In this document: positions 464-63,547 of the stretch, one piece after another
Layout: each line of letters opens with the position of its first letter
Position numbering within the stretch: position 1 is the stretch's first letter
Assembly: GCA_964348825.1 (NCBI GenBank)
Contig: CAYGDX010000003.1
Location: 22,184-86,183, forward strand
Direction of reading: 5' to 3'
Source of the DNA: an uncultured Gammaproteobacteria bacterium
GTDB taxonomy: Bacteria > Patescibacteriota > Patescibacteriia > Veblenbacterales > UBA10138
Length of the DNA stretch: 64,000 bases
Translations under genes and position numbers: made by a program
The notes under the pieces: model-generated
What the model was told of the DNA's origin: nothing
The model's database searches: none
The model's input: the letters and a program-made list of their open reading frames with translations, nothing else

Positions 464-587
464 AAATTGATGAGCAAAAGTTAAATCTATATATTATTAT
501 ACAACGATACTATAAAAAATGTAAGGACATAAGCTAAAAATTCTAAATCCGAATATCTAAATCCGAAATAAATCCAAATTTCCAAAA

Positions 588-756
588 GTCGTGCCGCCCT
601 GTCGTAGGGTTTGTGCAGAGCGGAAGTCAAACGAGCGTCCGGCTTGGGCGTGTCTGTGGTCGCTTCGCATAGCCCGAACCAGCTCATTTGACGAGCACTG
701 TTCAAACCCGAAGACGAAGGCGGCGACTCTTGCACTACTTCTCTAGAGAAGTAGTA
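588..756 (-). ncRNA. Copy 1 (minus orientation) of a four-copy ~170-nt GC-rich structured repeat. Terminal hairpin ctacttctc-ta-gagaagtag at 735-754.
   Basis: Shares the conserved core gtcttcgggtttgaacagtgctcgtcaaatgagctggttcgggctatgc...gacgctcgtttga...ctctgcacaaaccctacgacagggcggca with the copies at 55758, 58182 and 61263. GC-rich island in AT-rich DNA. ORF 487..735 drawn through it is not conserved as coding. Confidence 0.6.
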
Positions 757-761
757 AAAAA

Positions 762-1863: not shown

Positions 1864-1946
1864 AGGATATTAATTTATATTTCAAAATATCGACATTTTT
1901 AAATATCGAAATTTCGATATTTTGATATGTCGAAATATTAAAATTG

Positions 1947-2390: not shown

Positions 2391-2461
2391 AAAAAATTTC
2401 TTAATATTAATATATTAAAATTTTAAAATGTCGATATCTCGAAATTTCTAAATATTAAACC

Positions 2462-2920
2462 CTACCAACCCAACTCTTTAAGTGCGGCTTCAGCATAAAA
2501 TAAAACATTAGTGCGCAAATCCATCGTGCCCAACTCCTCTTTTGTTGCCCAACGGGCCAAACTTTTCTCGTGATCATTAACTGCACTAGAAATAACATCC
2601 GTACCAGCTTTTGCAAAATATACAAACGTAACGTGTTCATGATTTTCGTTTACCATATTTTTGCCCATATACCTTGGGGCAATGATAGAAAAAAAATTAT
2701 CATCTTTAAATGGGGGTATACTCCCACAAATTTCAATATCTAACCCCACCTCTTCCTTTACTTCACGAATAGCCGCCTCATTCGGATCTTCATCAAGCTC
2801 AATGTGTCCACCAATAGATAACCAATAACCATATTTATCATGCTTACGAAGTAGTATTTTATTTTTATACACAATAAAAACCTCCACCGTAAAATCAATT
2901 TTTTCATGAATGTGTGGCAT
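2462..2920 (-). CDS. NUDIX hydrolase
   Basis: Nudix box GGHIELDEDPNEAAIREVKEEVGLD. Confidence 0.75.
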   Translation of the reverse strand: MPHIHEKIDFTVEVFIVYKNKILLRKHDKYGYWLSIGGHIELDEDPNEAAIREVKEEVGLDIEICGSIPPFKDDNFFSIIAPRYMGKNMVNENHEHVTFVYFAKAGTDVISSAVNDHEKSLARWATKEELGTMDLRTNVLFYAEAALKELGW

Positions 2921-2932
2921 GATAATTACTAA

Positions 2933-3376
2933 TTAACTAATATAAAATTCTTTTTGCAAATAATTTTTTACCATCTTCGCGCTCGGTGGAAAAAGTGGTG
3001 CTGGTAAATTATTTAAATCAAACCACTGCCACTCCACAATTTCATCCGGCTCCATAACTTTTACCTCACCACTAAAATCATCACTAAACATACCTACAGT
3101 AATAAAATGGGCATGTTCATTTTTATCATTGTTTACACACATTACTTTAACCAACTTTAATTCCAAACCCGTTTCCTCCTTTACTTCACGCTTCGCACCT
3201 TCTTCAAACGATTCTCCAAATTCCATTTTACCACCTGGCATAGTCCAACTACCTTCGCCGTGAAGCTCGGAATCGGCTTTAAGTGGATCAGAATGCCGGC
3301 GCCCCAAAAGCACCTTGCCGTCTTTAAAAATCATCACCCCAAACCCGCCTCTAACCTTTTGATTATTGTCTGTCAT
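2933..3376 (-). CDS. NUDIX hydrolase
   Basis: Nudix box PGGKMEFGESFEEGAKREVKEETGLE. Confidence 0.75.
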   Translation of the reverse strand: MTDNNQKVRGGFGVMIFKDGKVLLGRRHSDPLKADSELHGEGSWTMPGGKMEFGESFEEGAKREVKEETGLELKLVKVMCVNNDKNEHAHFITVGMFSDDFSGEVKVMEPDEIVEWQWFDLNNLPAPLFPPSAKMVKNYLQKEFYIS

Positions 3377-3386
3377 ATAAATAAAA

Positions 3387-3803
3387 TTAATTAAGTAAAC
3401 CTCTTTTCAATAAATCGGGAATTATTTTATTTCTAATAATCGGAGAGGTTTTTGGATTAGTTATATAACTTTTATCAATCCAGTGAATATTTTTTACTTC
3501 TGTTGATGCTTTTGGCTCACCAATAATTTTGCCAACATATAATTTAATAGAAACATCTCTATCTGATTTACCAGCCGCAATATCAGTGTATTCATTAACA
3601 TAAACAAGCGAATTTAAATCAACTTCGCAATTTAATTCCTCTTTTATCTCCGCTTTTAACGTCTCAACTTCAGTTGCCTCTTGAAATTGACCGCCGGGCA
3701 TAATGTAATCTGAAGTAACATTACTAGGGTCTTTCTCGCAAACCAGAAACTTGGTTTGATCGTCATTTAAAATTAATAAAGCAATTTTATTATAGTACGC
3801 CAT
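3387..3803 (-). CDS. NUDIX hydrolase (divergent)
   Basis: PGGQFQEATEVETLKAEIKEELNCE Nudix-like box, 138 aa. Confidence 0.6.
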   Translation of the reverse strand: MAYYNKIALLILNDDQTKFLVCEKDPSNVTSDYIMPGGQFQEATEVETLKAEIKEELNCEVDLNSLVYVNEYTDIAAGKSDRDVSIKLYVGKIIGEPKASTEVKNIHWIDKSYITNPKTSPIIRNKIIPDLLKRGLLN

Positions 3804-3816
3804 ACATTAAAATTAA

Positions 3817-4275
3817 TTACTTTTTTAAATACATTTTCACACCTTCTAAAATACCAGAGGTAAAAAACTTTGCGGGCACCACCTTTTCTAATTTAACCCA
3901 CTCATAACCCTTATGCTCACGACTAATCTTAATTTTACCACTTACGTACTTAGCCTCAAAAAATACATACAAAACATGAATCTCTTTTTGCCTACTGCCG
4001 GATTTCTTTGGTAATAAATGCCTCCCCACCGCCACCGGCTTACCCTTCACTATAAATTTTATATTACCTATCTCTTCCCTCACTTCTCTTTCTATAACCT
4101 CCATCAAATCAGTTCTGAATTCATCTGTATCAATTCTACCTCCAGGTAAATCATAAAAACCAGCAAAACTACCACCTTCTACGGCTTTTAGAATCAACAC
4201 TTCGCCGTCTTTATTTTTCAAAAACAACTTTAATGAAATTTGATAAAAATCTTTAGTTTTTTTCATAAGAACCAT
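3817..4275 (-). CDS. NUDIX hydrolase
   Basis: LPGGRIDTDEFRTDLMEVIEREVREEIG Nudix box. Confidence 0.65.
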   Translation of the reverse strand: MVLMKKTKDFYQISLKLFLKNKDGEVLILKAVEGGSFAGFYDLPGGRIDTDEFRTDLMEVIEREVREEIGNIKFIVKGKPVAVGRHLLPKKSGSRQKEIHVLYVFFEAKYVSGKIKISREHKGYEWVKLEKVVPAKFFTSGILEGVKMYLKK

Positions 4276-4278
4276 ACT

Positions 4279-4731
4279 TTAGTTTGATACCACGTATGCG
4301 AGTACGTTAAATTCAGGATCAAAAAATTCTATCATCTCATACTCCGGCCTCACTATAACACGAAGATTGTTTGGACACTTATGTAAATACTCTTTTTTAA
4401 AATTTTCGTAGTTAGTTTCAAAATCATTGCAACCAACTTGTGGACGCTCGGGGTCTGGCTGTCTAATGCGTAAATGCGTGATTTTATTACTTCCAACTAT
4501 AATTGGCACATTCGACTCTGCTCGCGGACCATTATGAAAACTATAGACTTTTCCTATCTCGCCAAGAATTTTAGTTAATAATTCGTACTCTGACTCCGAA
4601 TGTGAAAAAATTGTCAACGACTTAATTGGAAAAGTTTTACCAACTAAATTTTCGGCCAACTTAGATGTTTCAGTGGCAATATAATGTACTGTCTCTAACA
4701 ACCCCTCTTTATTCTGAATTAATTTTTCCAT
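4279..4731 (-). CDS. Hypothetical protein embedded in the NUDIX operon
   Basis: 150-aa ORF with a 4-nt gap to its neighbours. I recognise no family. Confidence 0.4.
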   Translation of the reverse strand: MEKLIQNKEGLLETVHYIATETSKLAENLVGKTFPIKSLTIFSHSESEYELLTKILGEIGKVYSFHNGPRAESNVPIIVGSNKITHLRIRQPDPERPQVGCNDFETNYENFKKEYLHKCPNNLRVIVRPEYEMIEFFDPEFNVLAYVVSN

Positions 4732-4773
4732 TTTTATAAACTACTCAATATTAATCTCTTTATTTATAAAAAA

Positions 4774-5169
4774 TTATTCTATGTCCAACTCCTTAAAACC
4801 AGTAGCGGAGTCAAAAAATCTTTTATACGAGGCGTCATCAAATATTCCAATAACAACCTCTGCTGTAACTTCCACCTTACAACCATCTTTCAAATGACCG
4901 CCGATTACCTTACCATCTTTATCAGAAACAGATATGTGTATATGACAACCATCTTGTGAAATTGTTCCAGTTCCAGAAACAATCTCAAACGCCCCCTCAA
5001 ACTTCTTTACGATTTGATTTTGTGGAGTTGCGCCAGCCATTCTTAAATTAACCTCTTTAAGCGAACCAACAATTGACAATAAAACTCCAGCCTTAATATT
5101 TCTAGATCTATTCTCAATTTCTTCTTTTAAAAATTGATTTGGTTTTAACCGAAATGTTAGTTGCCTCAT
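4774..5169 (-). CDS. PPC/DUF296 domain protein (PD1-like DNA-binding fold)
   Basis: 131 aa. LSIVGSLKEV.LRMAG...FEIVSGTGTIS...HIHISVSDKDGKVIGGHL matches the DUF296 pattern. Confidence 0.5.
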   Translation of the reverse strand: MRQLTFRLKPNQFLKEEIENRSRNIKAGVLLSIVGSLKEVNLRMAGATPQNQIVKKFEGAFEIVSGTGTISQDGCHIHISVSDKDGKVIGGHLKDGCKVEVTAEVVIGIFDDASYKRFFDSATGFKELDIE

Positions 5170-5205
5170 AATATTATTAACTAATGAGATAATTATCTCA
5201 AATTA

Positions 5206-5703
5206 TTATGAATTAAATCTTTGCCACTCAGTTTTTTTACCTTGTCTTTTATTATCAACCATTGCCAATTCATCATAAATACCATCTATCAATTGATAAT
5301 TTTTAGCCTCTTCTAAACTAACCCAAGCAAACTGATCACTTTCTTCAGTTTGTAATATAATTTCACCCGCCACATAATCGGCCATGCACGATATTACCAG
5401 TGACGGACTGCCATCAGCATGAATCGTGGCTAAGCTGGTCACGTATTCAATATTTTCAATCTCAATCCCCACTTCCTCTTTCACCTCACGACGCAGGGTT
5501 TGTTCTAAAACATTGTACCAATAATGCTCTGTATCTTTTGGTAATTGCAAATAATCACTGGTTTCCATTTTACCACCCGGCACTGTCCACATTCCAGGAA
5601 AACGTTTTTTATTTGGTGATCGTCGTGTAATTAAATACTTTCCGTCTTTTACAATAATGGCAGTAATTACTACTTCGTGAAGATATTGATTGGTTGCGTT
5701 CAT
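5206..5703 (-). CDS. NUDIX hydrolase
   Basis: VPGGKMETSDY...LRREVKEEVGIEIE Nudix box. Confidence 0.75.
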   Translation of the reverse strand: MNATNQYLHEVVITAIIVKDGKYLITRRSPNKKRFPGMWTVPGGKMETSDYLQLPKDTEHYWYNVLEQTLRREVKEEVGIEIENIEYVTSLATIHADGSPSLVISCMADYVAGEIILQTEESDQFAWVSLEEAKNYQLIDGIYDELAMVDNKRQGKKTEWQRFNS

Positions 5704-6145: not shown

Positions 6146-8863
6146 CTAGGCCCCATGACACTTCTTATATTTCTTTCCACTCCCACACGGACACAAATCA
6201 TTCCGTCCGACTTTTTCCCCTGATTCGTCGCGCACCTTACTTTCCACTCCTGCGCTAGAAGAAGTGAGTACCTTAGCAAACACACTCCCTGCCTCCGCCA
6301 TAGTTTTAGCTGGGCCGGATTCTTGCATAGTAAATCGTGGCGCTGACTTTTCGCTTGCAATATTTTCTACCACACTCACTTTAAAAACATTGTAAACTAC
6401 TTGATCTTGAATTGAGCCAAGTAATTGTTTGTACATTTTATAACCCTCGCGCTTATATTCCACCAACGGATCGCGCTGACCATAACCTTGAAGTCCTATT
6501 CCGCCTCGCAAATGATCCATCGCGGTTAAATGTTGCACCCACAAAGTATCAATGCTACGCAGTAAAATAGTTTTTTCGGCCTCACGCATTACTTTTTCGG
6601 GCTCGGGTAATGATTGTTTGGTAGCATGATCCACTACTTTAGCTTCTAATTTTTTATATTCTTCTTTAGCCAAACTAACTAAATAATTAATAAAAGCATC
6701 GCGCTTAGCTGGTAGTGATAATGATTTATCATCACCACAAATTTCAGCCAATGCCTTACGCGCTGAGGATTCAAGTGGAAAAATAGAATTTATTACTTCA
6801 TAAATTTCTGGCAAATTCCATTGTGATTCATCTTCTAGCGCGGTATGAAATGCTACTACCTCGACGATTTCATCAGCTACATATTTTTCTACTAGCAATG
6901 ACAAGTGAGTAGTATCGCCTTCGGCCGATTTTAAAATTTCTCGTCGCTTATTATAAATTGATTCACGTTGTTTATTTAACACATCATCATATTCCACTAA
7001 GTGTTTGCGAATATCAAAATTATGACCTTCCACTTTTTTCTGCGCCGTTTCAATTGATTTAGAAACTAAACCATTCTCAATCGGCATATCATCGGGTACA
7101 TTCAGCCGATCCATTAGTCGCTTCACTCTGTCGCCACCAAAAATTCGCATTAAATCGTCTTCCAGTGATACATAAAATTGCGAGGCACCTGGATCACCTT
7201 GCCGGCCACCACGACCTCTGAGCTGATTATCAATTCGCCTTGATTCGTGTCGTTCAGTACCTAAAATCAATAACCCACCAGCTTGTTTAACTGCTTCGGC
7301 TTCTTCAACCACCACTGGACTACCACCTAAAATAATATCTACGCCACGGCCGGCCATATTTGTAGCAATCGTGACCGCCCCTTTTCGCCCCGCTTGCGCA
7401 ATAATGGCCGCTTCACGCTCATGGTGTTTAGCATTTAATACTTCGTGTGGTACGCCGGCTTGTTTTAATAATTCAGATAAAATTTCATTTTTTTCAATCG
7501 AAATGGTACCAACCAACACTGGCTGGCCTAATTCGTGCCGGCGTTTTACTTCCTGAACCACCGCTTTAAATTTACCAAGTTCGGTTTTAAAAACACTATC
7601 CGACAAATCTTTACGCACCATCAACCGATTCGGTGGCACCGCTATTACTTCCAAATTATAAATTTTGGCAAATTCTTCCGCTTCGGTGGTGGCTGTACCA
7701 GTCATACCTGATAATTTTTTATACAACCGGAAATAATTTTGAAATGTAATGGTGGCAAGGGTGAGTGACTCGCGCTGAATTTTAACACCTTCTTTAGCCT
7801 CAATCGCTTGGTGCAAACCTTCAGAGTACCTGCGACCAAACATTAAACGACCCGTAAATTCATCTACAATTACCACTTCACCTTCACGCACTACATAATC
7901 GCGATCAAGTTTAAATAAGGTGCGGGCTTTAAGCGCCTGCTCTAATAAATGTAAAATATCTAATCCCCCTTCGTATAAATTATTTATGCCTAAATGTTTT
8001 TCCGCTTTGGTTATAGCGCTTTCCGTAAAAGTAGCGGCGCGCATTTTTTCATCTACATTATAATCTTCGTTTTCGGCGAGGGTAGCTACGAACCGCGCGG
8101 CATCCAAATACTTTTCAGTAGCTTCTTCAGCTGGTGCGGAAATAATAAGTGGCGTACGTGCTTCATCAATCAAAATTGAATCTACTTCGTCTACAATCGT
8201 GTAATGAAGCGGGCGTTGTACCATTTCTGAAGCGCGCCACACCATATTGTCACGCAAATAATCAAAACCAAATTCATTGTTGGTGCCGTAAGTAATATCA
8301 GCTTGGTACGCCTCGCGACGACTCACAGCCCGTAAATTATTATAAGTGGCATCATCGTGTTTCACTTCTGGATCAAATAAATATCCGCGCTCGTGATTAA
8401 TACAAGCAACTGAAAGACCGAGTGCATTATAAATTTTACCCATCCAAATACAATCGCGCCGCGCCAAATAATCGTTCACTGTAACCACGTGCACACCCTT
8501 GCCTTCTAAGGCGTTCAAATACACGGGCAAGGTAGCAGTTAAAGTTTTACCTTCACCAGTTCTCATTTCCGCAATATTCCCACGATGTAAAATAATACCA
8601 CCCAAAATTTGCACATCAAAATGACGCTGAGAAATTACGCGCTTAGCAGTAGCGCGCACGACCGCAAACGCTTCAGGCAACAAATCATCCAGTGTTTCAC
8701 CCTTAACTAAACGTTCTTTAAACACCGCTGTGCGAGCTAACAATTCCGCCTCACTTAATTTCTCAAACTCTGATTCTAATTCGTTGACACGTGAAACAAG
8801 CGGCTGTAATTCTTTAATTACCCGCGCATTTGGATCACCAAATAATTTATCTAAAAAACTCAT
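6146..8863 (-). CDS. secA: Preprotein translocase ATPase SecA
   Basis: 905 aa. DEAD-like motor motifs ([17 protein letters not shown]), PPXP region, and C-terminal Zn finger [14 protein letters not shown]. Confidence 0.95.
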
Positions 8864-11786: not shown

Positions 11787-11830
11787 AAATTAGTTAGAAG
11801 TTACTAGTCAATAGTTCAAAGTTTAAATTT

Positions 11831-11908
11831 CATTAGAACATTAGATCATTAGAACAAAAAAACAAAAAATTGATAAAGTGTTCTACTGTTCTAGGGTTCT
11901 AGTGGTGT
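11831..11908. promoter_or_regulatory. Palindromic 9-mer array element (3x cattagaac-like, AT-rich centre, 3x gttcta-like) upstream of speB
   Basis: cattagaacattagatcattagaac-aaaaaaacaaaaaattgataaa-gtgttctactgttctagggttctagtg. Same architecture recurs at 16748, 34252, 36741 and 59566. Confidence 0.6.
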
Positions 11909-15740: not shown

Positions 15741-16712
15741 CTAGAACCCAATATACCTCACCTCGTCTTGCAACTGTATCCCAAATTGATCCCGCACTTG
15801 TTGTTTAATAAAAGAAATCAGCATCACTACATCCTCGGCTTTAGCTCCACCAACATTTACAATGTAATTAGCATGCTTATCGGAAACTTGCGCTCCGCCA
15901 ATGGTTTTGCCTTTCAGCCCCGCCCGATCAATCAACCAACTGCTTGGTAATTGTCCTTTTTGTATAAACTCCTCAATTTTTTCCTCACCGGCGAATTTAG
16001 TTCGCACTTCATCGGCATTGGTAATTGCTGAATTCATAAAAATACAACCTGAAGATGGCACGTTGTACGGTTGATTACGCCGCGCGTCAATATATTTTTT
16101 CATTAATTCTTTACTCACGCCCGACTCATCTTTTTTTAATTCAAAAACCACTTGTAAAATAACGTCATGATTTCTCTTAAAAATTGATTGGCGATAACCA
16201 AACTCGCATTCAGCTTTACTTAATTTAACCACCTTATCATCACGACACACCACTACTTCTTTTATAAAGTCACCAATAAAACCATTTTTAATTTGTGGAA
16301 TACCAGCATTACCGTAAACTGCACCTCCCACCGTACCCGGTACAGCTACTAGCGGTTCAAGCCCAGTGAGGCCAGCCGCAATAACTTTTTGCACTAAAAA
16401 TCCTAAATTCACACCGGCGTCAGAATTAACTTGCTCACCTTCAACTGACCACTGATTATTACGCGCTTCAATTACCAAACCATCAAAGCCCTTATCCGAT
16501 ACTAAAACATTGGAACCACCACCTAAAATCAAAAACGGTAATTTTAATTCATCAGCCACTTGAATAGCGCGCGTGAGTTCGTTGGTACTGCGCGCCACAA
16601 AAAAATATTTGGCTGGCCCACCAATTTTAAAATTAGTATGAGCTGATAGTGGCTCAGCCATTTTAACCAAGTCGCCGAGGTTTGTTTTAAGTTCAGAGAA
16701 TATGTCAGACAT
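15741..16712 (-). CDS. murB: UDP-N-acetylenolpyruvoylglucosamine reductase MurB
   Basis: FAD-binding N-terminus FKIGGPAKYFFVARSTNEL...LGGGSNVLV, 323 aa. Confidence 0.9.
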   Translation of the reverse strand: MSDIFSELKTNLGDLVKMAEPLSAHTNFKIGGPAKYFFVARSTNELTRAIQVADELKLPFLILGGGSNVLVSDKGFDGLVIEARNNQWSVEGEQVNSDAGVNLGFLVQKVIAAGLTGLEPLVAVPGTVGGAVYGNAGIPQIKNGFIGDFIKEVVVCRDDKVVKLSKAECEFGYRQSIFKRNHDVILQVVFELKKDESGVSKELMKKYIDARRNQPYNVPSSGCIFMNSAITNADEVRTKFAGEEKIEEFIQKGQLPSSWLIDRAGLKGKTIGGAQVSDKHANYIVNVGGAKAEDVVMLISFIKQQVRDQFGIQLQDEVRYIGF

Positions 16713-16747
16713 TGGTTAGTAAGAGTAAGGGGATCAATTATTTATCA

Positions 16748-16846
16748 CTTGAACATTAGATCACTAGAGCATTAGAACAATAGAAAAACTTTGGTGTATA
16801 ATAATGTTCTAATGCTTAAGTGTTCTAGTGATAAAGTGAACGATAA
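16748..16846. promoter_or_regulatory. Palindromic 9-mer array element upstream of murB (cattaga-c repeats, AT-rich centre with tggtgtataat, then gttctaatg.. repeats)
   Basis: cattagatcactagagcattagaac-aatagaaaaactttggtgtataataat-gttctaatgcttaagtgttctagtg. Lies 35 nt upstream of the murB start. Confidence 0.6.
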
Positions 16847-17085
16847 ATCTACTTATTCCAGCTTACCATCCCCCTTAATTCTGGTAAATCCGTTAAATTA
16901 TCTAAAAATCCTTTAAATCTTATATTTTTACCAAAATAAGTCAATTATAAATAATTAATTTATGCTAATATTAGCCAAAATATTATATTTATTGTTCCAC
17001 AATCATTGACAAAATCTACTATCCGCGCTATCATAGAGTGTTAACAATTTAAAACCAATTTTCGTTCCTAATGCTTGGGGCGCGG

Positions 17086-18547: not shown

Positions 18548-18670
18548 TATTTAATCATTGATTTATTCAAAACTAAAAGGTATTAATATGAAACGTAGGT
18601 GACAAATAAAGCGGGTCGTCGACCACCTCGGCAAACAGAAGTCGACCGCAACTAAAGGCGAATTTTAGAT

Positions 18671-18707
18671 AAGGACAGAACAAGATTTATCTGTCCTTAA
18701 TTTTTTT
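18671..18707 (+). terminator. Rho-independent terminator
   Basis: aaggacag-aacaagatttat-ctgtcctt followed by aattttttt. Confidence 0.55.
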
Positions 18708-18787
18708 AAGATTATAATTATTTCTGGATTCTTGCCTGTGCAGGAATGACAAACGTGTTATAACTTAAAAAAGTTAAACTAACTACC

Positions 18788-19062: not shown

Positions 19063-19124
19063 TGGATTCCCCTTTTCAGGGGAATGACATATTGCCAAGA
19101 TTCTTCACTGTGATTCAGAATGAC
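19063..19124. repeat. Two GGATTC..GAATGAC-family hairpins (ggattcccc-tttt-caggggaatgaca; gattcttcactgtgattcagaatgac)
   Basis: Same flanking motif as 17703, 18725 and 56021. Confidence 0.45.
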
Positions 19125-19190
19125 GTTTTGGGATTTGGTCCGCCAGCTGGCGGATTGGAGATTTTTAGAAATTAGAAATTAGATATTAGT

Positions 19191-19241
19191 AATTTTGAGA
19201 GATTGCCATGTCGTTCGCCTTACTCACTCCTCGCAATGACG
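19191..19241. repeat. Gene-3'-end repeat, copy B, immediately after the murC stop
   Basis: aattttgagagattgccatgtcgttcgccttactcactcctcgcaatgacg, preceded by ttagaaattagaaattagatattagt, as in copy C. Confidence 0.55.
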
Positions 19242-20650: not shown

Positions 20651-20789
20651 AATATGATTTAAAATAATTTGTAGAAAATCCGAAATCCTAAACCCTAAAT
20701 CCCAAATAAATCATAAAATTTAAAATCCTAATATATAAACCTTTTTGATTTCAAGTATTGGGATTTATTTAGGATTTAGATATTAGGAA

Positions 20790-21938
20790 TTAGAATTTTT
20801 GAGAGATTACTTCGTCATTCCGCTTCACTTCATTCCTCACAATGACGTCCTTTAATAATCGTAAAACCTCACTAACCACCCTCTCCGCTCCATCTTTCGG
20901 AAACAATTTAGTCAAATTTTCCGCGTACTTTTCCCGGCGATCTGTATCGTTCCAAAGCTCGTTTACAGTAGCAACCAATTGCTCACTCGTCAATCCTAAC
21001 TGATGTACATATACCCCAGCTTGTTTCTTGGCTATTAACTCCGCATTGGCTTCTTGATGTTTACTAGGCAAAGGTATCACGATAATTGATTTACCAAGTA
21101 CACCAAGCTCTGTTAAAAAGGCCATACCCGCTCGTGTAATCACTACATCAGCCACTTGAAGTGCTTTAAAAATAGTTTCTGCTTGAGCTACAAATTCAAG
21201 TGGAAGATAGTGCGAATGTTTAAAAGTATTTTTTAAATTACCTTGTCCCGTAATATGAAGTACTTGAAAATTCTTAACTAGCTCTGGTACAGCTTGCTCG
21301 ACTATGCGATTAAGAGAAACAGCGCCCGTGCCTCCACCAATTACCACTAGAATTGGCAAATGTACATTCAAACCTAATTCATTTTTTAATGTATCGGCCG
21401 GCCGAAGATTTAAAAATTCCGAACGCACTGGATTGCCCACTACCCTACAAACGTTATTTGGAAAATCTTTAATTGATTCCGGAAATGTTACCGTAACTAA
21501 ATTCGCCACTCGCCCTAATATTTTATTAGTTAAAACTACTTTAACATCTTGTTGGTGTACCACTAGTGGTACGCTCATTACCTTAGCAACTAAACCAACC
21601 GGTAGTGCCACGAAACTGCCAGCGGTGAGCACGATATCAACCTGATTTCTTGTAAACCAAATTAAACATTTAATAAAACTAAAAAGGATGAGTACTAAAT
21701 CGGTAATATTTTTTATACTAAAGTAACGTCGCCACTTAGCTGCTGGTAGTTGAATATATTTTTCTACTACATTTTGTACCACCTCTTTTTCTGGACCATG
21801 AGTCGTACCAAACCAAACCACGCGTACCTTACACGCCGGCAATTGTTTTTTTAATTCCGCAAGTACTGAAAGTAGGGGCGTAACCGAACCAAGCGTACCA
21901 CCGCCCGCACAAACAATGGTTAATTCTTTTCGTTCCAT
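20790..21938 (-). CDS. murG: MurG, UDP-GlcNAc:undecaprenyl-PP-MurNAc-pentapeptide GlcNAc transferase. The C-terminal ~17 aa are probably read through a repeat.
   Basis: GT28 fold with glycine-rich N-terminus IVCAGGGTLGSVTPLL, 382 aa; sits between ftsW and murC. Confidence 0.85.
   Translation of the reverse strand: MERKELTIVCAGGGTLGSVTPLLSVLAELKKQLPACKVRVVWFGTTHGPEKEVVQNVVEKYIQLPAAKWRRYFSIKNITDLVLILFSFIKCLIWFTRNQVDIVLTAGSFVALPVGLVAKVMSVPLVVHQQDVKVVLTNKILGRVANLVTVTFPESIKDFPNNVCRVVGNPVRSEFLNLRPADTLKNELGLNVHLPILVVIGGGTGAVSLNRIVEQAVPELVKNFQVLHITGQGNLKNTFKHSHYLPLEFVAQAETIFKALQVADVVITRAGMAFLTELGVLGKSIIVIPLPSKHQEANAELIAKKQAGVYVHQLGLTSEQLVATVNELWNDTDRREKYAENLTKLFPKDGAERVVSEVLRLLKDVIVRNEVKRNDEVISQKF
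20793..20847. repeat. Gene-3'-end repeat, copy C, overlapping the annotated 3' end of murG
   Basis: gaatttttgagagattacttcgtcattccgcttcacttcattcctcacaatgacg. The last 17 codons of the murG ORF (..IVRNEVKRNDEVISQKF) are translated from this repeat. Confidence 0.55.
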
Positions 21939-25920: not shown

Positions 25921-26157
25921 AACAATGGTATTTTAGCGGAAAAAAACATATCCGACAAGTAGCTATACTTATCGCTAAAATATCCAAGGATAAAAGTATT
26001 TGAATATAGAAATATGAATTGTTTTAATAACTAATCTCTAATATCTAATTTCTAAAAAACCAAAAATCCTAATAACCAACTTAAAAAATAGGAATTAGTC
26101 ATTAGACATTAACAATTACCCTCTACCCTATTTTTCCGTCATCTGATATATTTAATT

Positions 26158-31151: not shown

Positions 31152-31218
31152 AAATTCACTGTCTAAATACCAAATTTTAGGATTTCGGATTTAGAATTTA
31201 GGATTTTATAATTTTCTT

Positions 31219-34251: not shown

Positions 34252-34350
34252 TCATTAGAACATTAGATCACTAGAGCATAAAAACAAAAATGTCATTTAT
34301 TATAATGTTTTAATGTTTAAGTGTTCTAGTGTTTTATATTAGCGTTCTAA
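34252..34350. promoter_or_regulatory. Palindromic 9-mer array element upstream of rplI
   Basis: cattagaacattagatcactagagcat-aaaaacaaaaatgtcatttattataat-gttttaatgtttaagtgttctagtg. The centre carries a TATAAT. Confidence 0.6.
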
Positions 34351-35619: not shown

Positions 35620-35820
35620 GATAAGTGATAATTGGTCAAAATAATAAAATGATAAGTAAACTGTTGATTTTTAAGTTAAAAAAAGCTAGAGTACAAGCAG
35701 GATTTGTACAATATTTTTATTATGCGAATATTAATAACTGGTGATGTAGGGCTGTGCCCCGTACCCAATATAGAATGATTTAATCAAATAATGGTGTTTA
35801 TTTAGAATTATATTTTAATT

Positions 35821-36753
35821 ATGAAAATATTAGTTACCGGTGGTGCAGGGTTTATTGGCTCACATTTGACTGATTTCTTGGTATCTAAAAAACACCAAGT
35901 TTTAGTGCTGGATAATTTAAGTCACGGACGATTGTCTAATATTGCCACAAACTCTCAAAAATATAAATTTAAAAAAATAGATATTCGCTCACCACGCTTA
36001 TCTACTGTTTTTCGCGCCTTCCGTCCAGAAAAAGTTTTTCACTTGGCGGCACAAATTAATGTACGTGAATCATTAAAAAATCCGGCGCGTGACGCGGAAA
36101 GTAATATTATTGGCGCGCTTAATGTTTTTCAAAATGCCCAAAATGTAGGCGCTAAACAAATTATTTTTACTTCTACTGGCGGCGCACTTTACGGCGAAGC
36201 AAAAATTCGACCCACCCCCGAAAATCATCCGACTGTTCCCCTTTCGCCTTACGGCATCGCCAAGCTCGCCACTGAAAATTATTTAAAATTTTATTATCAA
36301 GTTTATAAATTACCCTCTGTAATTTTAAGATTTTCTAATGTTTACGGCCCACGGCAAAACCCTGAAGGTGAAGCTGGTGTGGTCGCAATTTTTGCAGATT
36401 GTTTATTAAAAGGTTTATCACCAACAATTAACGGCTCGGGGAATCAAACTCGTGATTTTGTTTATGTGGGCGATGTAGTTCAAGCTTTAAACAAAGCAAG
36501 TAGCCATAAAAAATTTGATATTTTTAACATTGCCACTGAACGAGAAGTTAGTATCAATGAAATTTTTAATATTCTTAAAAAAATTACTAAATTTTCTGGT
36601 GCACCAAAATATGTACCAGCAATCCTAGGCGAAATTTATCACAGCGTGTTAAGCGCAAAACACGCCAAGCAAACGTTGCGTTGGCAACCACAGGTTAAAA
36701 TTGAGGAGGGATTAAAAAAAGTGGCGGAGTATATGTTATCACTAAAACATTAG
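35821..36753 (+). CDS. NAD-dependent sugar epimerase/dehydratase (GalE-like SDR)
   Basis: MKILVTGGAGFIGSHL Rossmann motif and YGIAK catalytic Tyr-x3-Lys. Confidence 0.8.
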   Translation: MKILVTGGAGFIGSHLTDFLVSKKHQVLVLDNLSHGRLSNIATNSQKYKFKKIDIRSPRLSTVFRAFRPEKVFHLAAQINVRESLKNPARDAESNIIGALNVFQNAQNVGAKQIIFTSTGGALYGEAKIRPTPENHPTVPLSPYGIAKLATENYLKFYYQVYKLPSVILRFSNVYGPRQNPEGEAGVVAIFADCLLKGLSPTINGSGNQTRDFVYVGDVVQALNKASSHKKFDIFNIATEREVSINEIFNILKKITKFSGAPKYVPAILGEIYHSVLSAKHAKQTLRWQPQVKIEEGLKKVAEYMLSLKH

Positions 36754-36797
36754 AACACTTTATCAATTTTTGTTTTTATGTTCTAGTGGTCTAGTGT
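36741..36797. promoter_or_regulatory. Palindromic 9-mer array element straddling the epimerase stop, immediately upstream of the GT2 gene
   Basis: cactaaaacattagaacac-tttatcaatttttgtttttat-gttctagtggtctagtg. Confidence 0.5.
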
Positions 36798-42294: not shown

Positions 42295-42404
42295 AAATTA
42301 AGTTCGTAGCTGTTAATCAATAGTTCGTAGAACTAATTACTACAAAAAATCGATAAATTATAAAATTATTTTCGAATTTCGATATTCGGATTTCGAATTT
42401 TTAC

Positions 42405-47920: not shown

Positions 47921-48925
47921 TTAATTAAGATGTGGATTTAATTCTGATTTCCTTTTTTCTAATTTCTCTACCCACTCTTTATTATTTACATACCATTCTA
48001 CCGTTTCCTTAATCGCCTTAGTAAAATCATACTGCGGAACCCAACCTAATTCTTGTTTAATTTTAGTGGCATCAATCGCGTAGCGCCGGTCGTGGCCCGG
48101 GCGATCGGCTACAAAAGTAAGTAAGCTTTCGGGCTTACCCAATTCACTTAAAATAATCTTAGCAATTTCTAAATTAGATTTTTCATTATCTGCCCCAATA
48201 TTATACACTTCTCCCGCTACTCCTTTGTGGAGCATTAGGTCAATCGCCTCACAATGATCAAGCACATAAATCCAATCACGTACGTTTTTACCATCGCCAT
48301 AAAGTGGTAATGATTCACCACGCAGTGATTTAAAAATAAAAAATGGAATCAACTTTTCCGGAAATTGATACGGGCCATAATTATTAGAGCAGTGAGATAC
48401 TACCACAGGTGTGCTATAAGTTTTAAAAGCCGCCCGACACAAAAGGTCGCCACCTGCTTTAGCCGCCGCATATGGCGCATTGGGTGTAAATGGCGTATTT
48501 TCAGTAAACTGTGTATTATCTTCAAGCTCTAAACTACCATACACTTCATCGGTTGAAATCTGCACCATTTTTTTGACTTCATATTTCCGTACCGCATCAA
48601 GCAAAGTTTGCACACCTAAAGTATTGGTCAGCACAAAATCGCGATTACCACCGTGGATGCTTCTATCCACATGGGTTTCCGCCGCAAAATTAACTACCGC
48701 ATCAAAACTTTGCGCTAGCACCTCGTCAACTTTAGTTTGATCAGCAATATCACCTTGAATAAAACTATAATGCGGATTTTTTACTAAATCAGCTAAATTA
48801 TCTAAATTACCAGCGTAAGTTAGTTTATCATAATTAACAATTTGATAATCAGGATATTTTTGTAAAATATGGCGGATAAAATTGGAGCCAATAAACCCTG
48901 CACCACCGGTAACTAATATTTTCAT
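47921..48925 (-). CDS. rmlB: dTDP-glucose 4,6-dehydratase
   Basis: MKILVTGGAGFIGSNFIRH, YAAAKAGGD (YxxxK), 334 aa. Confidence 0.9.
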   Translation of the reverse strand: MKILVTGGAGFIGSNFIRHILQKYPDYQIVNYDKLTYAGNLDNLADLVKNPHYSFIQGDIADQTKVDEVLAQSFDAVVNFAAETHVDRSIHGGNRDFVLTNTLGVQTLLDAVRKYEVKKMVQISTDEVYGSLELEDNTQFTENTPFTPNAPYAAAKAGGDLLCRAAFKTYSTPVVVSHCSNNYGPYQFPEKLIPFFIFKSLRGESLPLYGDGKNVRDWIYVLDHCEAIDLMLHKGVAGEVYNIGADNEKSNLEIAKIILSELGKPESLLTFVADRPGHDRRYAIDATKIKQELGWVPQYDFTKAIKETVEWYVNNKEWVEKLEKRKSELNPHLN

Positions 48926-49034
48926 AATTAAAATATAATTCTAAATAAACATCATTATTTGATTAAATCATTTTACTACTGGGTACAGGGCGCTGCCCCG
49001 CACCACCAGTGATTAAAAGTTTAATAATAAAAAA

Positions 49035-55725: not shown

Positions 55726-55757
55726 ACTAAGTGTTATGAATTAAGAATTAGTTTTAT

Positions 55758-55946
55758 TTTGTTACTTCTTTAATAGAAGTAACCATGAATCGCAGGCCAC
55801 GGTCTCCAAGTTTGAACAGTGCTCGTCAAACGAGCTGGTCAGGCCTATGCACAGCGACCACAAACACGGCCTGACCGGACGCTCGTTTGATTCCCTGCCT
55901 ACCGGCAGGCAGGCGCTCTGTACAAACTTTCCGACATGGCCGCACA
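55758..55946 (+). ncRNA. Copy 2 of the four-copy GC-rich structured repeat. Terminal hairpin gttacttc-tttaata-gaagtaac at 55760-55782.
   Basis: Core ...gtctccaagtttgaacagtgctcgtcaaacgagctggtcaggcctatgc..ggcctgaccggacgctcgtttgattccctgcctaccggcaggcaggcgctctgtacaaactttccgacatggccgcac. The last ~70 nt are identical to copy 3. Confidence 0.6.
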
Positions 55947-56020
55947 ACTTTTGGGAATTGGGATTTTTAAAAATTAGTTATTAGTTGTTAGTGATTTTCC
56001 CCGCCACAGCGGGGCAAGCT

Positions 56021-56106
56021 GGATTCCCGCCGGAGTTTACCCCGCACCAAGATGCGGGGCGGGAATGACCCCACTTCGCCAAGGCTACGTGGGGCGAGCA
56101 ATTCTT
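56021..56106. repeat. GC-rich element homologous (reverse complement) to 14148-14279; contains a ggattcccgcc...ggcgggaatgac hairpin
   Basis: See the 14148 feature. Confidence 0.55.
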
Positions 56107-58163: not shown

Positions 58164-58181
58164 AGTTAATATAATACTTTT

Positions 58182-58368
58182 TTGTTACTTCTTTAATAGA
58201 AGTAACCAAGAATCGCGGCCTTCGTCTCCAAGTTTGAACAGTGCTCGTCAAACAATCTGGTCAGGCCTATGCCGAGCGACCACATACACGCCCAAGCCGG
58301 ACGCTCGTTTGATTCCCTGCCTACCGGCAGGCAGGCGCTCTGTACAAACTTTCCGACATGGCCGCACG
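58182..58368 (+). ncRNA. Copy 3 of the four-copy GC-rich structured repeat. Terminal hairpin at 58184-58206.
   Basis: ttgttacttctttaatagaagtaacca..gtctccaagtttgaacagtgctcgtcaaacaatctggtcaggcctatgc...ggcgctctgtacaaactttccgacatggccgcac. Confidence 0.6.
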
Positions 58369-58423
58369 ACTTTCTATGATTTATTTTTCTAATTTCGAAT
58401 TTAGTGCTTCGGATTTGGAATTT

Positions 58424-59563
58424 TTATTTTATATACTTCTTCAACTCTTTCACCATATCCAACTTCTCCCAAGTAAACCCCTCACCCATGCGGCCAAAAT
58501 GACCATAAGTAGCGGTGGCTTGATAAATCGGCCGACGTAATTTTAAATGTTCAATTATCTCATACGGTGTCAGTGGAAAATGATTTTCAATAATTTTTAT
58601 TATTTTGTCATCTGGTAACGCACCGGTACCAAAAGTATTTACTGCCAAACTAACAGGCACAGGTTCACCAATCGCATAAGCTAGTTGTACTTCGCACTCG
58701 CGAGCTATTCCTGCCGCTACTAAATTTTTCGTGATATAACGGGCCGCGTACGAAGCTGAACGATCAACTTTGGAAGCATCTTTACCCGAAAAACAGCCAC
58801 CACCATGATGCGCCCGACCGCCATAAGTATCTACGATTATTTTGCGACCTGTCAGGCCAGTATCGGCCTCCGGCCCGCCAATTACAAATCGACCGGTAGC
58901 ATTAATAAAAACTTTGGTTTTATTATCAAATAGTAACCCGCAAATTTTTTTTATTACTTCTTTTTCTAATTCCGCTCGCAATTTAACTAAAGATACATTT
59001 GGATCATGCTGGGCCGCTAGTACCACACTAAAAATTCTTTTTGGTTTGCCACTTTCATATTCCACCGCCACCTGACTTTTGCCATCGGGCCTGAGACCTT
59101 TCACAATCCCCTTCTTTCTTACCTCAGCTAAACGCATAGCTAACTTATGCGCCAACATAATTGGTAAAGGCATAAATTCCGGAGTTTCAAGGCAAGCATA
59201 ACCAAACATCAATCCTTGATCACCCGCACCAATATTTTTTGCTGAACGCACTACGCCACGTTTAATATCCACCGACTGTTCGTGTAGCGCCACCAGCACA
59301 CCAGCGTCAGAAGCATCAATTCCAAAATCAGGATTGGTATAACCAATCTCACTTAAAACTTGCCGCGCAATTTTTTGCACATTCACATAACCGCGCGTTG
59401 ACACTTCACCGCCCACCAACATCACACCAGAAGTAACATATGTTTCAATGCCAGCACGAGTAAAGGGATCTTGGCGTAATAATTCATCTAAAATTGCGTC
59501 GGATACTTGATCACAAATTTTATCGGGATGACCCTCGGTAACTGATTCTGAAGTATAAATCAT
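58424..59563 (-). CDS. metK: S-adenosylmethionine synthetase
   Basis: [33 protein letters not shown] and DTYGG motifs. Confidence 0.95.
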
Positions 59564-59565
59564 AT

Positions 59566-59650
59566 CATTAAAACACTAGAACATTAAAACATTAGAACAT
59601 TATTAATAAAAATCTTGTTTCTATGATCTAGCGATCTAATGTTCTAATGT
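59566..59650. promoter_or_regulatory. Palindromic 9-mer array element beginning 3 nt upstream of the metK start codon
   Basis: cattaaaacactagaacattaaaacattagaacat-tattaataaaaatcttgtttctatg-atctagcgatctaatgttctaatg. Confidence 0.55.
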
Positions 59651-59658
59651 AAATATTA

Positions 59659-61180: not shown

Positions 61181-61262
61181 AGAGTAAATATATTATCTAA
61201 CAAAACCATGAGTCGGTATAGAAAATTTAAAACAAAAATTTTAAATATCAAAATATTATTTT

Positions 61263-61432
61263 TACCACTTCTCTAGAGAAGTGGTGCAAGAGTCGCCGCC
61301 TCGGTCTCCGGGCTTGAACAGTGCTCGCCAAACGAGCTGGTCAGGCCTATGCCAAGCGACCACAACACGGCCTGACCTTAAGCTCGTTTGCCTTGCGCTC
61401 TGTACAAACCCTACGACAGGGCGGCATTCGTT
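61263..61432 (+). ncRNA. Copy 4 of the four-copy GC-rich structured repeat. Terminal hairpin ccacttctc-ta-gagaagtgg at 61265-61284; lacks the cctgcctaccggcagg sub-hairpin.
   Basis: ccacttctctagagaagtggtgcaagagtcgccgcctcggtctccgggcttgaacagtgctcgccaaacgagctggtcaggcctatgccaagcgaccacaacacggcctgacc..gctcgtttgccttgcgctctgtacaaaccctacgacagggcggca. Same subfamily as copy 1. Confidence 0.6.
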
Positions 61433-61495
61433 TCCATTTTTTGAATTTAGAATTTTAGATTTATTTAGGATTTCGAATTTCGATATTCGGATTTT

Positions 61496-63547
61496 TTACT
61501 TAAATATCGCCACATTCAAGCCGCCACGCCAATTTGTTGGCTCCATAAAAAACTGGGCTTGTGCCTTACCCTCTTTATTAAATATTCTAATCTGCGGCCC
61601 GCCGGAAGTGGCTGGCACAGTTACTACTTCCTGATTACCATTACCATCGGTATCGCCCACCGCCACTTGCACGCCACCGCGAAAACTTTTGGCAAAAGCA
61701 AAAAACTGTTTAATTAATTTTCCCTTACCATCAAAAATTTTTACTTCTGGTTCACTGCCCGCCCCGCGCGCTACAATAATTTCCGATTTAGCATCACCAG
61801 TTAAATCGCCGGCTGAAATATTAACACCACCCTTACCCATTGCCTGCCAAGCCCAAAATTCTAATTTTTTATTACCAAATTTATCAAATACTCTAATTGG
61901 TAAATTATTCTTACCCTGCGGCGCTACAATAATTTCTGGATTTTTATCACCATCAATATCACCAGTGGCTACTTGTACCCCACCTAAATAATTAAAATCA
62001 TAAGGCGCAAATTGATAAAATAATCGACCACTGCCATCAAAAATTCTAACTAAATTAGATGCCCGCGAACCTGTACCCACCACAATATCACTTTCCCCTT
62101 CGCCCGTAAAATCAGCCGATGCCACACTTAACCCACCTAAATAAAATTCTGGAAAAGCTAAAAATTCAAATTCTAATTCACCTTTTTGATTAAAAATTCT
62201 AACCTGTGGCTTACTACCCGCTCGCGGCGCTGTAATAATATCGGTTTGGCCATCATCATCAATATCGCCGGCTGTTAAATTAACACCCCCTTTAACAGTT
62301 GAATCATAGGCTGTAAATTTTTGTAGTACTTCACTACTAATATCTAAAGTGGAGATGAGTGCTGGCCCAGTTTGATAACCAACAATAATTGGATTCTTGC
62401 GTGGAAATTTAGTACTACCAGCCAAATCAACCGCCGCTTTTAAATTTAATTTACGCCCTACTTTGCCATTTGATCCTAAAATTTCATCACCCGAGGCAAT
62501 TAAAACATCCCTAAGTTGTGATGGCGAAAGTCGCGGAAAGGCCGCTTTTAAAAAAGCGAGTGAGCCACTAATAAGCGGCGTAGCGACTGAAGTGCCTGAC
62601 CATCCTCCACCATAACTTTGTTTAAATTTAGTATTACCATTTACTACTAACTGCGTACTATAAATATTTGTACCCGGAGCTGACAAATCAACGCACCCCG
62701 CGCCAAAATTAGAAAATTCGGCGCGCTGATTATTTTCACCCAAAGCCGCCACACCAATTACCCAATTGGAGCCGACAGGTCCATCACTACACACTGGATA
62801 CTGCGGTGAAAAATCCATATCAATCGCTTTGGTTTGATCATTGCCCGAGGCCGCTACTACTAAAATTCCAAGCTTAGCCGCCCGCGCAATCGCTACTTCT
62901 AAATCGGGATCTGATAAATCACCCACAAAACTTAAATTTATAATATCAGCATTTTTATCAATCGCATAGTTAACAGCTCGCGCCACCGCTGTTGTATCGC
63001 CCACACCTCTGCCGTCGAGCACCCGCAGTGGCATTAGGCGCGCCTGAAAAGCCACGCCTGCCACGCCTAAATTATTATCACCCACTGCCGCGGCTACACC
63101 AGCTACAATTGTACCGTGATTTACCGCTAGCTCATTCCAACCTGATTCAAATTTTGGTCGTGGATCAGGCGAATTCGCCACAAAATCCCAACCGTGCACA
63201 TCATCAGTAAAACCATTATTATCATTATCTAATTTATCACCCGGCACTTCCCATGGGTTAAACCAAATATTTGATTTTAAATCTGGATTATCTATATCCA
63301 CCCCTGAATCTAAAATAGCAATTACAGGGCGCAAATTACCTTTGATTTGATAATCCCACGCCGCTGGAATATTAACGCGCTCTAAATAATTTTTTTGATA
63401 TTTAAAATCTAAGTCACTTGGTTGCAAAGCTATTTTAACCAAACCACCGGCGGCATAAACAAAATTTTGACCAATAACGAAAAACCCGAGAACAATTCCC
63501 GGGAAAATTTTATAGCTAAATTTTCCACTTAACCACTGGATCATCAC
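61496..63547 (-). CDS. Secreted subtilisin-like (S8) serine protease fused to C-terminal FG-GAP/VCBS repeats
   Basis: Signal anchor; catalytic triad regions DSGVD, HGTIVAG, GTSVATP; C-terminal repeats DIDDDGQTDII, DIDGDKNPEII, GDTDGNGNQEVV. Confidence 0.75.
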   Translation of the reverse strand: MMIQWLSGKFSYKIFPGIVLGFFVIGQNFVYAAGGLVKIALQPSDLDFKYQKNYLERVNIPAAWDYQIKGNLRPVIAILDSGVDIDNPDLKSNIWFNPWEVPGDKLDNDNNGFTDDVHGWDFVANSPDPRPKFESGWNELAVNHGTIVAGVAAAVGDNNLGVAGVAFQARLMPLRVLDGRGVGDTTAVARAVNYAIDKNADIINLSFVGDLSDPDLEVAIARAAKLGILVVAASGNDQTKAIDMDFSPQYPVCSDGPVGSNWVIGVAALGENNQRAEFSNFGAGCVDLSAPGTNIYSTQLVVNGNTKFKQSYGGGWSGTSVATPLISGSLAFLKAAFPRLSPSQLRDVLIASGDEILGSNGKVGRKLNLKAAVDLAGSTKFPRKNPIIVGYQTGPALISTLDISSEVLQKFTAYDSTVKGGVNLTAGDIDDDGQTDIITAPRAGSKPQVRIFNQKGELEFEFLAFPEFYLGGLSVASADFTGEGESDIVVGTGSRASNLVRIFDGSGRLFYQFAPYDFNYLGGVQVATGDIDGDKNPEIIVAPQGKNNLPIRVFDKFGNKKLEFWAWQAMGKGGVNISAGDLTGDAKSEIIVARGAGSEPEVKIFDGKGKLIKQFFAFAKSFRGGVQVAVGDTDGNGNQEVVTVPATSGGPQIRIFNKEGKAQAQFFMEPTNWRGGLNVAIFK

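Follow-up and report, generated by a model that had tools for sequence, protein, structure and literature searches.

The 64,000-nt stretch of contig CAYGDX010000003.1 analysed here, referred to as the window, contains four GC-rich intergenic copies of a repeat. These copies are members of a repeat family of approximately 170–200 nt, which is non-coding, folds into a hairpin and has not been described previously; more than 20 copies, of 170–220 nt and without a transposase open reading frame (ORF), were recovered overall. We read the element as a short, non-coding, non-autonomous, structure-dependent mobile intergenic repeat family of Patescibacteria, with a probability of about 0.58. The genomes of Patescibacteria (the Candidate Phyla Radiation, CPR) are small. 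Literature searches for CPR repeats or non-coding RNAs (ncRNAs) returned nothing relevant, and no description of repeat families in Patescibacteria was found in the literature searched.

The window covers a core part of the chromosome, in which mur genes, secA, ribosomal proteins and CTP synthase are encoded, together with a NUDIX array and an envelope-sugar operon. Its Pfam annotation contains no transposase, reverse transcriptase (RT), TnpB or integrase, in agreement with the preliminary description of this DNA, according to which no transposase, RT or TnpB lies nearby. That description had placed one architecture at four intergenic loci, and all four read as described. A covariance model run over the 64 kb finds exactly these four copies and none besides. 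The mean column identity among the four loci is 77% in the alignment, and a 27-nt core motif has four exact occurrences in the window versus 0 expected (100 shuffles). The GC content of the copies is 0.50–0.54 versus 0.31–0.42 for 1-kb windows; the preliminary description had given ~55% for the body and roughly 35% for the genome. The ORFs drawn across the copies are found on differing strands relative to the element, and the earlier view of a non-coding, multi-copy element stands. The copies and their parts are as follows; 'reader's strand' denotes hereafter the orientation used in the preliminary description.

577..761, minus strand: copy 1 (w1), full covariance-model match (cmsearch, 199.7 bits)
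734..755, minus strand: 5' hairpin of copy 1, ACUACUUCUCUAGAGAAGUAGU, a perfect palindrome in the sequence with a T-run before it; the stem covaries between copies
588..727, minus strand: long rod of copy 1, helices P1–P7 (RNAalifold and pair counts)
650..671, minus strand: conserved apical loop of copy 1, UAUGCGAAGCGACCACAGACAC
55755..55959, plus strand: copy 2 (w2), the locus of the finding, between the DUF2304 and DoxX genes, antisense to the operon (cmsearch, 188.2 bits)
55761..55783, plus strand: 5' hairpin of copy 2, GUUACUUCU-UUAAU-AGAAGUAAC
55790..55948, plus strand: rod of copy 2
55846..55867, plus strand: apical loop of copy 2, UAUGCACAGCGACCACAAACAC
55894..55913, plus strand: optional 20-nt palindromic sub-hairpin of copy 2, CCUGCCUACCGGCAGGCAGG, on the 3' side of the rod
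58178..58381, plus strand: copy 3 (w3), between the MetK and epimerase genes, antisense to the operon
58184..58206, plus strand: 5' hairpin of copy 3
58268..58289, plus strand: apical loop of copy 3, adjoined by the 5' arm GGUCAGGCC and the 3' arm GCCCAAGCC
58316..58335, plus strand: sub-hairpin of copy 3, not present in the orthologous copy of the sister species (L074)
61258..61441, plus strand: copy 4 (w4), between the S8 peptidase and GtrA genes, antisense to the operon (cmsearch, 191.9 bits)
61264..61285, plus strand: 5' hairpin of copy 4, ACCACUUCUCUAGAGAAGUGGU
61348..61368, plus strand: apical loop of copy 4, UAUGCCAAGCGACCACAACAC
61438..61501, no strand assigned: AT-rich microrepeat spacer adjoining copy 4 (others at 536–579 and 58371–58425)

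The credible genes around the window copies are all on the minus strand, so that in the reader's orientation copies 2–4 are antisense to their operon and copy 1 is sense, which corrects the preliminary description. Across the family, approximately 12 copies are sense and seven antisense to their neighbours. Elsewhere the neighbours are housekeeping genes unrelated to one another (tgt–queA, T2SSE–T2SSF, EF-P, FtsH, BipA, ScpA, PGI and the CCA-adding enzyme). Because of the mixed orientation and the unrelated neighbours, a gene-specific leader and an adjacent protein partner are ruled out.

Relatives and occupancy of orthologous spacers

In the genome collection (pattern scan, one genome per species) the only real source of the family is the Patescibacteria metagenome-assembled genome (MAG) H52-bin160_1, which contains 11 copies, one of them cut by a contig end. 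The remaining matches in the collection are chance matches in high-GC genomes, and one locus (L054) was discarded on reading. In the metagenome contigs, eight matches were found with a pattern that had been validated on the window copies before use; two pairs of them represent the same copy. At least 18 more copies are present beyond the window, in the sister-species MAG and in Veblenbacteria-like metagenome contigs, and the proteins of two metagenome lineages belong to clusters which one source names Candidatus Veblenbacteria. No further copies are found in ~159 kb of related loci, and viral contigs, plasmids and phages contain no match to the element. Concerning known RNA families, Rfam 15 gives 0 matches over the whole window at the gathering threshold, and permissive thresholds (E up to 10 and up to 1) applied to copy 2 and seven related loci return spurious matches only. 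The expected absence from Rfam is thus confirmed, with no family at the gathering threshold and nothing credible below it.

The operon order is kept in the relatives (S8 peptidase, GtrA, epimerase, MetK, epimerase, GT2, DUF2304, DoxX, PMT2). L074 represents the sister species (MetK 93% identical at the amino acid level, DNA identity ~87%) and shares its groundwater source with the MAG, and L077 is more distant (MetK 72% at the amino acid level). The occupancy of three operon spacers in these relatives is the following:

S8 peptidase–GtrA spacer: 315 nt with copy 4 in the window; 73 nt, empty, in L074; 3 nt, empty, in L077
DUF2304–DoxX spacer: 379 nt with copy 2 in the window; 46 nt, empty, in L074; 1 nt, empty, in L077
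MetK–epimerase spacer: copy 3 in the window; an orthologous copy (6807–6991) in L074; 6 nt, empty, in L077

Copies 2 and 4 are lineage-specific insertions, and copy 3 is an old copy whose orthologue is found in the sister species. Copy 1 has an orthologue in the sister-species MAG (L009), in synteny behind a NUDIX gene. The converse case is also found: two MAG copies (L041 and L043) occupy spacers whose orthologues in the window are without a copy. In the Veblenbacteria-like lineage, one site is filled (L067) and the corresponding spacer of three relatives (L079, L080, L081) is empty and 13 nt long. The comparison thus gives three filled/empty orthologous pairs and two sites occupied only in the MAG. 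These filled and empty spacers show that sister species have gained or lost copies within housekeeping operons, and that the family turns over quickly between close species, as mobile repeats do.

The preliminary description had proposed, among other options, a non-autonomous mobile element. This part is directly supported by the polymorphic sites, with copies 2 and 4 missing in L074 and all three operon copies missing in L077. Its wording as a MITE (miniature inverted-repeat transposable element) 'with structured ends' is unfit, given the loop-peaked conservation, the absence of an outer terminal inverted repeat (TIR) and the lack of a consistent target-site duplication (TSD). The same two absences led us to reject a canonical MITE, although small size, multiple copies, lack of a transposase ORF and insertion polymorphism are all found.

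The junction on the hairpin side is fairly sharp: aaaatattattt is followed by ttACCAC in the filled site, and aaaatatttattt by cgag in the empty one. The far-side junction dissolves into AT-rich microrepeats of 7–8 nt. Such microrepeats had been described as following each copy, and they are indeed present in the flanks; they are not specific to the element, however, but are host spacer features and no part of it, because they are also found in the empty L074 sites and in element-free window spacers. They are possibly landing sites.

Two longer flanking repeats were considered as TSDs and rejected. One, of 13 nt at copy 1, is similar to the microrepeats, and L009, the orthologue of this copy, does not have it. 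For the other, a direct repeat of 12–17 nt at L063/L067, the better explanation is a duplication of the tRNA_edit 3' end beside an inserted 275-aa ORF. The latter arrangement is an observation in its own right: on the Veblenbacteria-like contig, the inserted ORF of 275 aa (L067 1270–2097) matches nothing in Pfam and separates the tRNA_edit (YbaK-like) gene from scpA, with ~60 nt of the tRNA_edit 3' end duplicated after it, and the two genes are 13 nt apart in L079–L081.

Fold, covariation and exchange of segments

In most lineages the unit consists, in this order, of a T-run, an AT-rich hairpin of 9–10 bp, a linker (AAGARUCGCC) and a long imperfect GC-rich rod. The rod is ~140–180 nt long and contains 40 consensus pairs, five helices and fixed internal loops. 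Its apical loop is 22 nt long and nearly invariant (UAUGCNNAGCGACCACNNCACG); the loop motif TATGCNNAGCGACCAC is found in every copy retrieved, having itself been part of the metagenome-scan pattern. The caaacgagc/gctcgtttg helix of the preliminary description is also present. Concerning the 5' hairpin, the inner stem (CUUCU/AGAAG) is constant across copies, whereas the outer stem occurs in compensated variants, with covariation at four positions: ACUAC/GUAGU, ACCAC/GUGGU and GUUAC/GUAAC, which agree with the 9-bp terminal hairpins and compensated changes already reported, and also AUUAC/GUAAU and GCCGC/GCGGC. The T-run directly 5' of the hairpin is found in ~17/19 copies; it is of low complexity and maybe partly carried by the element.

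The 20-nt palindromic module is optional and has two possible positions in the rod. Copies 2 and 3, L026 and L068 carry it on the 3' side, L009 carries it on the 5' side, and L056 has one on either side; in the distant L068 it has the same sequence as in the window. Among the window copies the sub-hairpin (cctgcctaccggcagg) is found only in copies 2 and 3, as had been stated. There is a single 5' hairpin motif per copy, and neither it nor the sub-hairpin was found outside the element, so both were rejected as independent mini-elements. The rod is the core unit of the element, because the Veblenbacteria-like copy L067 has no 5' hairpin and consists of the rod alone, directly after a stop codon.

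Copy 4 on the reader's strand folds at −82.1 kcal/mol (z = −7.1 versus dinucleotide shuffles), and the opposite strand is equally stable against shuffles (z = −7.0). No pseudoknot emerged from a mutual-information scan, which recovered the helices and the subfamily signal and nothing else.

Covariation was counted on 21 distinct sequences aligned to the covariance model. Standard pairs make up 95.6% of the pair cells over the 40 pairs, and changes on both sides are found in 26 of the 40 pairs (127 cells), values which none of 500 shuffles reaches. In slid controls, with the partners moved by 1–3 columns, 27–40% of cells are paired and 4–12 pairs change on both sides. The distant copies have entire helices replaced (GGGUUUG/CAAACCC by AGGUAAG/CUUACCU, for example), and their loops are unchanged. 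The rewritten helices and these counts indicate a structure under constraint rather than an accident of recent duplication. The earlier claim that compensatory changes maintain the structure thus survives the addition of homologues. Also, the fixed mismatches and bulges in these sequences argue against a 'perfecting' of the palindrome by template switching.

Within the window, the exchange of ggtcaggcc/ggcctgacc for ggttcgggc/gcccaagcc in the upper helix is confirmed. The broader claim, that pairing of the internal helix is kept by covariation, is valid overall but fails in copy 3, whose upper helix is a chimera with three broken pairs. Copy 3 is identical to its L074 orthologue over ~170 nt except for the gained sub-hairpin and one short patch, which has replaced the 5' arm by the copy-2 type; the 3' arm is of the copy-1 type. 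This patch represents gene conversion. Copy 1 differs from its orthologue L009 by the swap of a whole helix and by the sub-hairpin, and the adjoining gene end is identical. Such cases show that copies exchange segments by gene conversion. The preliminary description had recognised two subfamilies (copies 2 and 3, and copies 1 and 4). Copies 2 and 3 do share the sub-hairpin and are identical over ~70 nt at the 3' end, but the chimera of copy 3, the helix swap between copy 1 and L009 and this common 3' end show that the groups are mosaics.

Explanations for the element

If the element is a mobile repeat, the folded hairpin would be the target of selection, either as single-stranded DNA (ssDNA) or as read-through RNA. 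The invariant loop may act as a docking site for a trans-acting factor encoded elsewhere, such as a mobilising enzyme (like RAYT for REPINs) or a processing or binding protein. Spread could take place via this factor, or by recombination through the AT-rich microrepeat flanks. Operon read-through of a copy would give a long duplex of ~40 consensus base pairs, which may serve as a substrate of RNase III or stop exonucleases, and both ERIC and Correia elements are described as acting in this way. Such effects on mRNA would be side effects and not a dedicated small RNA (sRNA) function.

The element has the properties of ERIC/bcr1-type repeats: it is an imperfect palindrome of spacers, is found in both orientations, and has compensatory changes and a patchy distribution. 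We regard it as an analogue and not a member of these repeats, because there is no sequence homology to the ERIC/bcr1 families. The bcr1 repeat of the Bacillus cereus group (~155 bp) is flanked by 5-bp direct repeats, keeps its RNA-level structure by compensatory changes and is patchily distributed (PMC3184786). Like bcr1, the present element is short, multi-copy and intergenic, with compensatory changes and a distribution which differs between close relatives; unlike bcr1, it has no consistent duplication, no sequence similarity and belongs to another phylum. The ERIC (IRU) repeats of Enterobacteriaceae are imperfect palindromes of ~127 bp found in spacers within or beside operons, in both orientations; they are long-lived across genera, have internal-insertion variants at fixed sites, and in read-through RNA form a long hairpin which can alter mRNA decay (PMC3184786). 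Shared with ERIC are the imperfect palindrome in operon spacers, both orientations and optional insertions at fixed sites. However, ERIC-type repeats are described with TIRs, target duplications and a flanking TA, whereas neither outer TIR nor TSD is found here, and the element has an asymmetric 5' hairpin and a 22-nt invariant loop. REPINs are regarded as being mobilised in trans by an enzyme encoded once per genome and as persisting vertically. The element resembles them in being hairpin-forming, non-coding, intergenic and without TSD, although a REPIN consists of two short inverted REP units, each with a palindrome, and the element of a single rod of ~140–180 nt. Of these systems, REPIN–RAYT best models how covarying stems and an invariant recognition site can go together.

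Several results weigh against a mobile repeat. Outer TIRs were not found, only the internal rod arms being inverted. There is no consistent TSD, and flanking direct repeats are not above shuffles in 19/21 copies, the two exceptions being the longer repeats rejected above; a T-run duplication of 3–4 nt at insertion remains compatible with the sites. No mobilising enzyme was found in the loci covered, and ~0.35 Mb of related loci contain no parent insertion sequence (IS) with matching ends. Conservation is maximal in the apical and internal loops and not at the ends, which is the opposite of a typical MITE and is expected of a functional RNA. The persistence of the family across lineages, with almost every helix rewritten, speaks for constraint over the long term. 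Outside the converted patch, ~170 nt of the copy-3 locus show 0 differences beside coding DNA which is 85–95% identical; either purifying selection on a useful element or recent recombination would fit this. Finally, the filled and empty sites come from species ~13% apart, and the exact boundaries are blurred by the AT-rich low-complexity flanks.

The loop-centred conservation, the persistence despite rewritten helices and the conservation of copy 3 keep two other readings alive, a functional RNA and an element with a partner protein, each of them distinctly a minority reading. In the second, which we think unlikely, the element would be half of a Patescibacteria-specific two-part system, with the invariant loop and the fixed internal loops recognised by a dedicated protein encoded once per genome. 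The partner could be a domesticated mobilising enzyme (REPIN–RAYT-like) or an RNA-guided or RNA-binding protein, and the family is suited to phylogenetic profiling for such a protein. If this were true, the repeat would be a long-lived selected hairpin population or a class of ncRNA and not decaying junk.

In its specific form the functional-RNA reading, tentative at best, is a family of structured sRNA genes, transcribed on the reader's strand from an AT-rich −10-like box close upstream of the 5' hairpin and ending at the U-run behind the rod, with the invariant loop pairing with or binding a cellular target. Sequence conservation in loops with covariation in stems fits it, as does the unusual conservation of the old copy 3; a U.G pair is conserved on the reader's strand in 18/20 sequences, TAnnnT-like boxes and then a T-run precede most hairpins, and a U-run tail (ACNACUUUUGG, ACNACUUUU) follows the rod in the window and H52 lineage. 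The insertion appears to start at the hairpin or at most ~10 nt upstream of it, however, so no promoter is clearly carried. The tail is confined to that lineage and is missing in the distant ones; no promoter or terminator is conserved across lineages, and a scan with sigma-70 promoter and intrinsic-terminator consensus called nothing for, or specific to, any copy.

The strand tests are also unfavourable to an sRNA. G.U cells outnumber A.C cells (37 vs 16); two columns, however, supply 27 of the former, and among the scattered wobble cells the proportion is reversed (10 vs 16). The opposite strand has the lower minimum free energy in 19/20 copies, but the consensus-structure energies of the two strands differ by only ~2.5 kcal/mol on average. 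With C 950 and G 758, the reader's strand is rich in C, an uncommon property among structured RNAs. The fast turnover of copy number and position between sister species and the mutated loop of the old L074 copy (AAACGACCAC) count against it as well. The preliminary description had taken the covariation to point to an RNA-level function; this step is not supported, since both strands fold equally and the wobble and energy tests pick no strand.

Very unlikely, in our judgement, is a relic or non-autonomous derivative of a guide-RNA transposon, which could be a PATE of the IS200/IS605 type, with the omega-RNA scaffold of TnpB, or the bridge-RNA end of an IS110. Its left end would then correspond to the 5' hairpin, its adjacent target motif to the T-run and its guide to the 3' flank. 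PATEs which encode omega-RNA and depend on TnpB in trans are documented (PMC10055086), and the element shares with them the lack of an ORF and of a TSD, asymmetric ends, a structured RNA-like body (here a scaffold of ~150 nt followed by a variable flank) and possibly a conserved 5' flank motif, if the low-complexity T-run is one. On the other hand, the right end has no hairpin resembling the left one, and none of ~20 copies adjoins a tnpB, tnpA, iscB or IS110 gene; an IS200/IS605 PATE was rejected on these grounds. Rfam searches of Patescibacteria loci up to E = 10 gave two spurious matches only, the L067 copy is without the 5' hairpin, and in many copies the 3' flank is the shared microrepeat rather than a unique guide. 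The omega-RNA or ribozyme idea of the preliminary description finds no support.

A hairpin acting at the DNA level as ssDNA is less probable still: an attC-like site, or an sso/ssi-like priming signal, with the loop read by a recombinase or by RNA polymerase or primase. The equal folding of both strands and the lack of a wobble strand bias would fit, and so would the location of the copies between co-directional genes, three of them within 6 kb. The AGCGA of the apical loop resembles the CS-6 motif (TAGCGT) of ssoA origins, which is a lead only. Against such a site, the base of the rod (GUCGCCGCC/GGCGGCACGAC) contains no RYYYAAC/GTTRRRY core sites, and the orientation is not uniform within one replichore, since copy 1 is inverted versus the others in a window of uniformly negative GC skew. 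Identity with an integron attC was rejected, as there are no R''/R' core sites, no integrase in the window, and metK and other housekeeping genes stand where 'cassettes' would be expected. It is likewise highly improbable that the element regulates the adjacent gene in cis, as a leader, attenuator or terminator cassette. In favour of this, the majority of copies beyond the window have the sense orientation relative to both neighbours and lie just upstream of a start codon, and the rod with its U-run is terminator-like in the window lineage. However, seven copies (including 3/4 window copies) are antisense, the genes downstream have no function in common, orthologous operons do without the element and the terminator scan calls none.

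The family shows that the operon spacers of Patescibacteria undergo active remodelling by a hairpin element, itself turned into a mosaic by gene conversion. The combination of invariant loops and rewritten stems, without TIR, TSD or a nearby enzyme, makes the family a tractable case for the movement and persistence of repeats. In practical terms, assemblies break at the element, leaving it at contig ends, and ORFs may be called in it by mistake; if it is only a selfish repeat, its value lies in annotation and as a strain marker.

Other modules and features of the window

The spacers in this lineage are mosaics of small modules, of which several were noted. The microrepeats, with a period of 7–8 nt (GGATTTA/CGGATTT/AGAATTT), fill many spacers and are found at 536–579, 19157–19221, 20660–20800, 26026–26058, 31176–31213, 42365–42403, 58371–58425 and 61438–61501. 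Those at 20660–20800 form an inverted pair. The microrepeats in general could represent a binding array, a region upstream of promoters or curved DNA. A second spacer cassette contains inverted arrays (TTAGAACA/TGTTCTAA) around a TGnTATAAT-like −10 box and looks like a shared promoter/operator module. It is present in the window at 11822–11904, 16738–16846, 34252–34336, 36742–36797 and 59565–59652, and also in the sister MAG (L018 4023–4115, L057 4233–4334). At 16712–16877 this cassette fills a spacer which carries the hairpin element in the MAG (L041).

Beside copy 2 (55985–56100) there are nested hairpins, CCCCGC..GCGGGG inside GGATTCCCGCC..GGCGGGAATGAC, as well as CCCCAC..GTGGGG. Other small GC-rich hairpin repeats are located at 19063–19090 and 19139–19154 of the window. 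A REP-like sequence, GGATTCCCCttttcaGGGGAATGAC, is common to the window and L043, and a mini-hairpin, TCCGCCAGCTGGCGGA, is found also within the L074 microrepeats and in a variant form in L009.

Concerning the remaining features, a stretch of ~110 nt at 18590–18715 ends in a clean terminator (AAGGACAGA...TCTGTCCTT and a T-run) and is 97% identical to the sister locus L043 1704–1814, whereas the flanking genes are ~85% identical; it has no Rfam match and is a candidate small RNA or 18-aa basic peptide (MTNKAGRRPPRQTEVDRN). The region 762–5703 contains approximately six consecutive small NUDIX-family hydrolase genes, interspersed with Maf, HIT and 23S_rRNA_IVP-family genes, a paralogue density which is unusual for a small genome. 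Finally, a 97-nt inverted repeat with 96% identity (35771–35867 and 48879–48975) corresponds to the 5' ends of two epimerase/dehydratase paralogues (35821..36753, plus strand; 47921..48925, minus strand), which suggests recent gene conversion between them.

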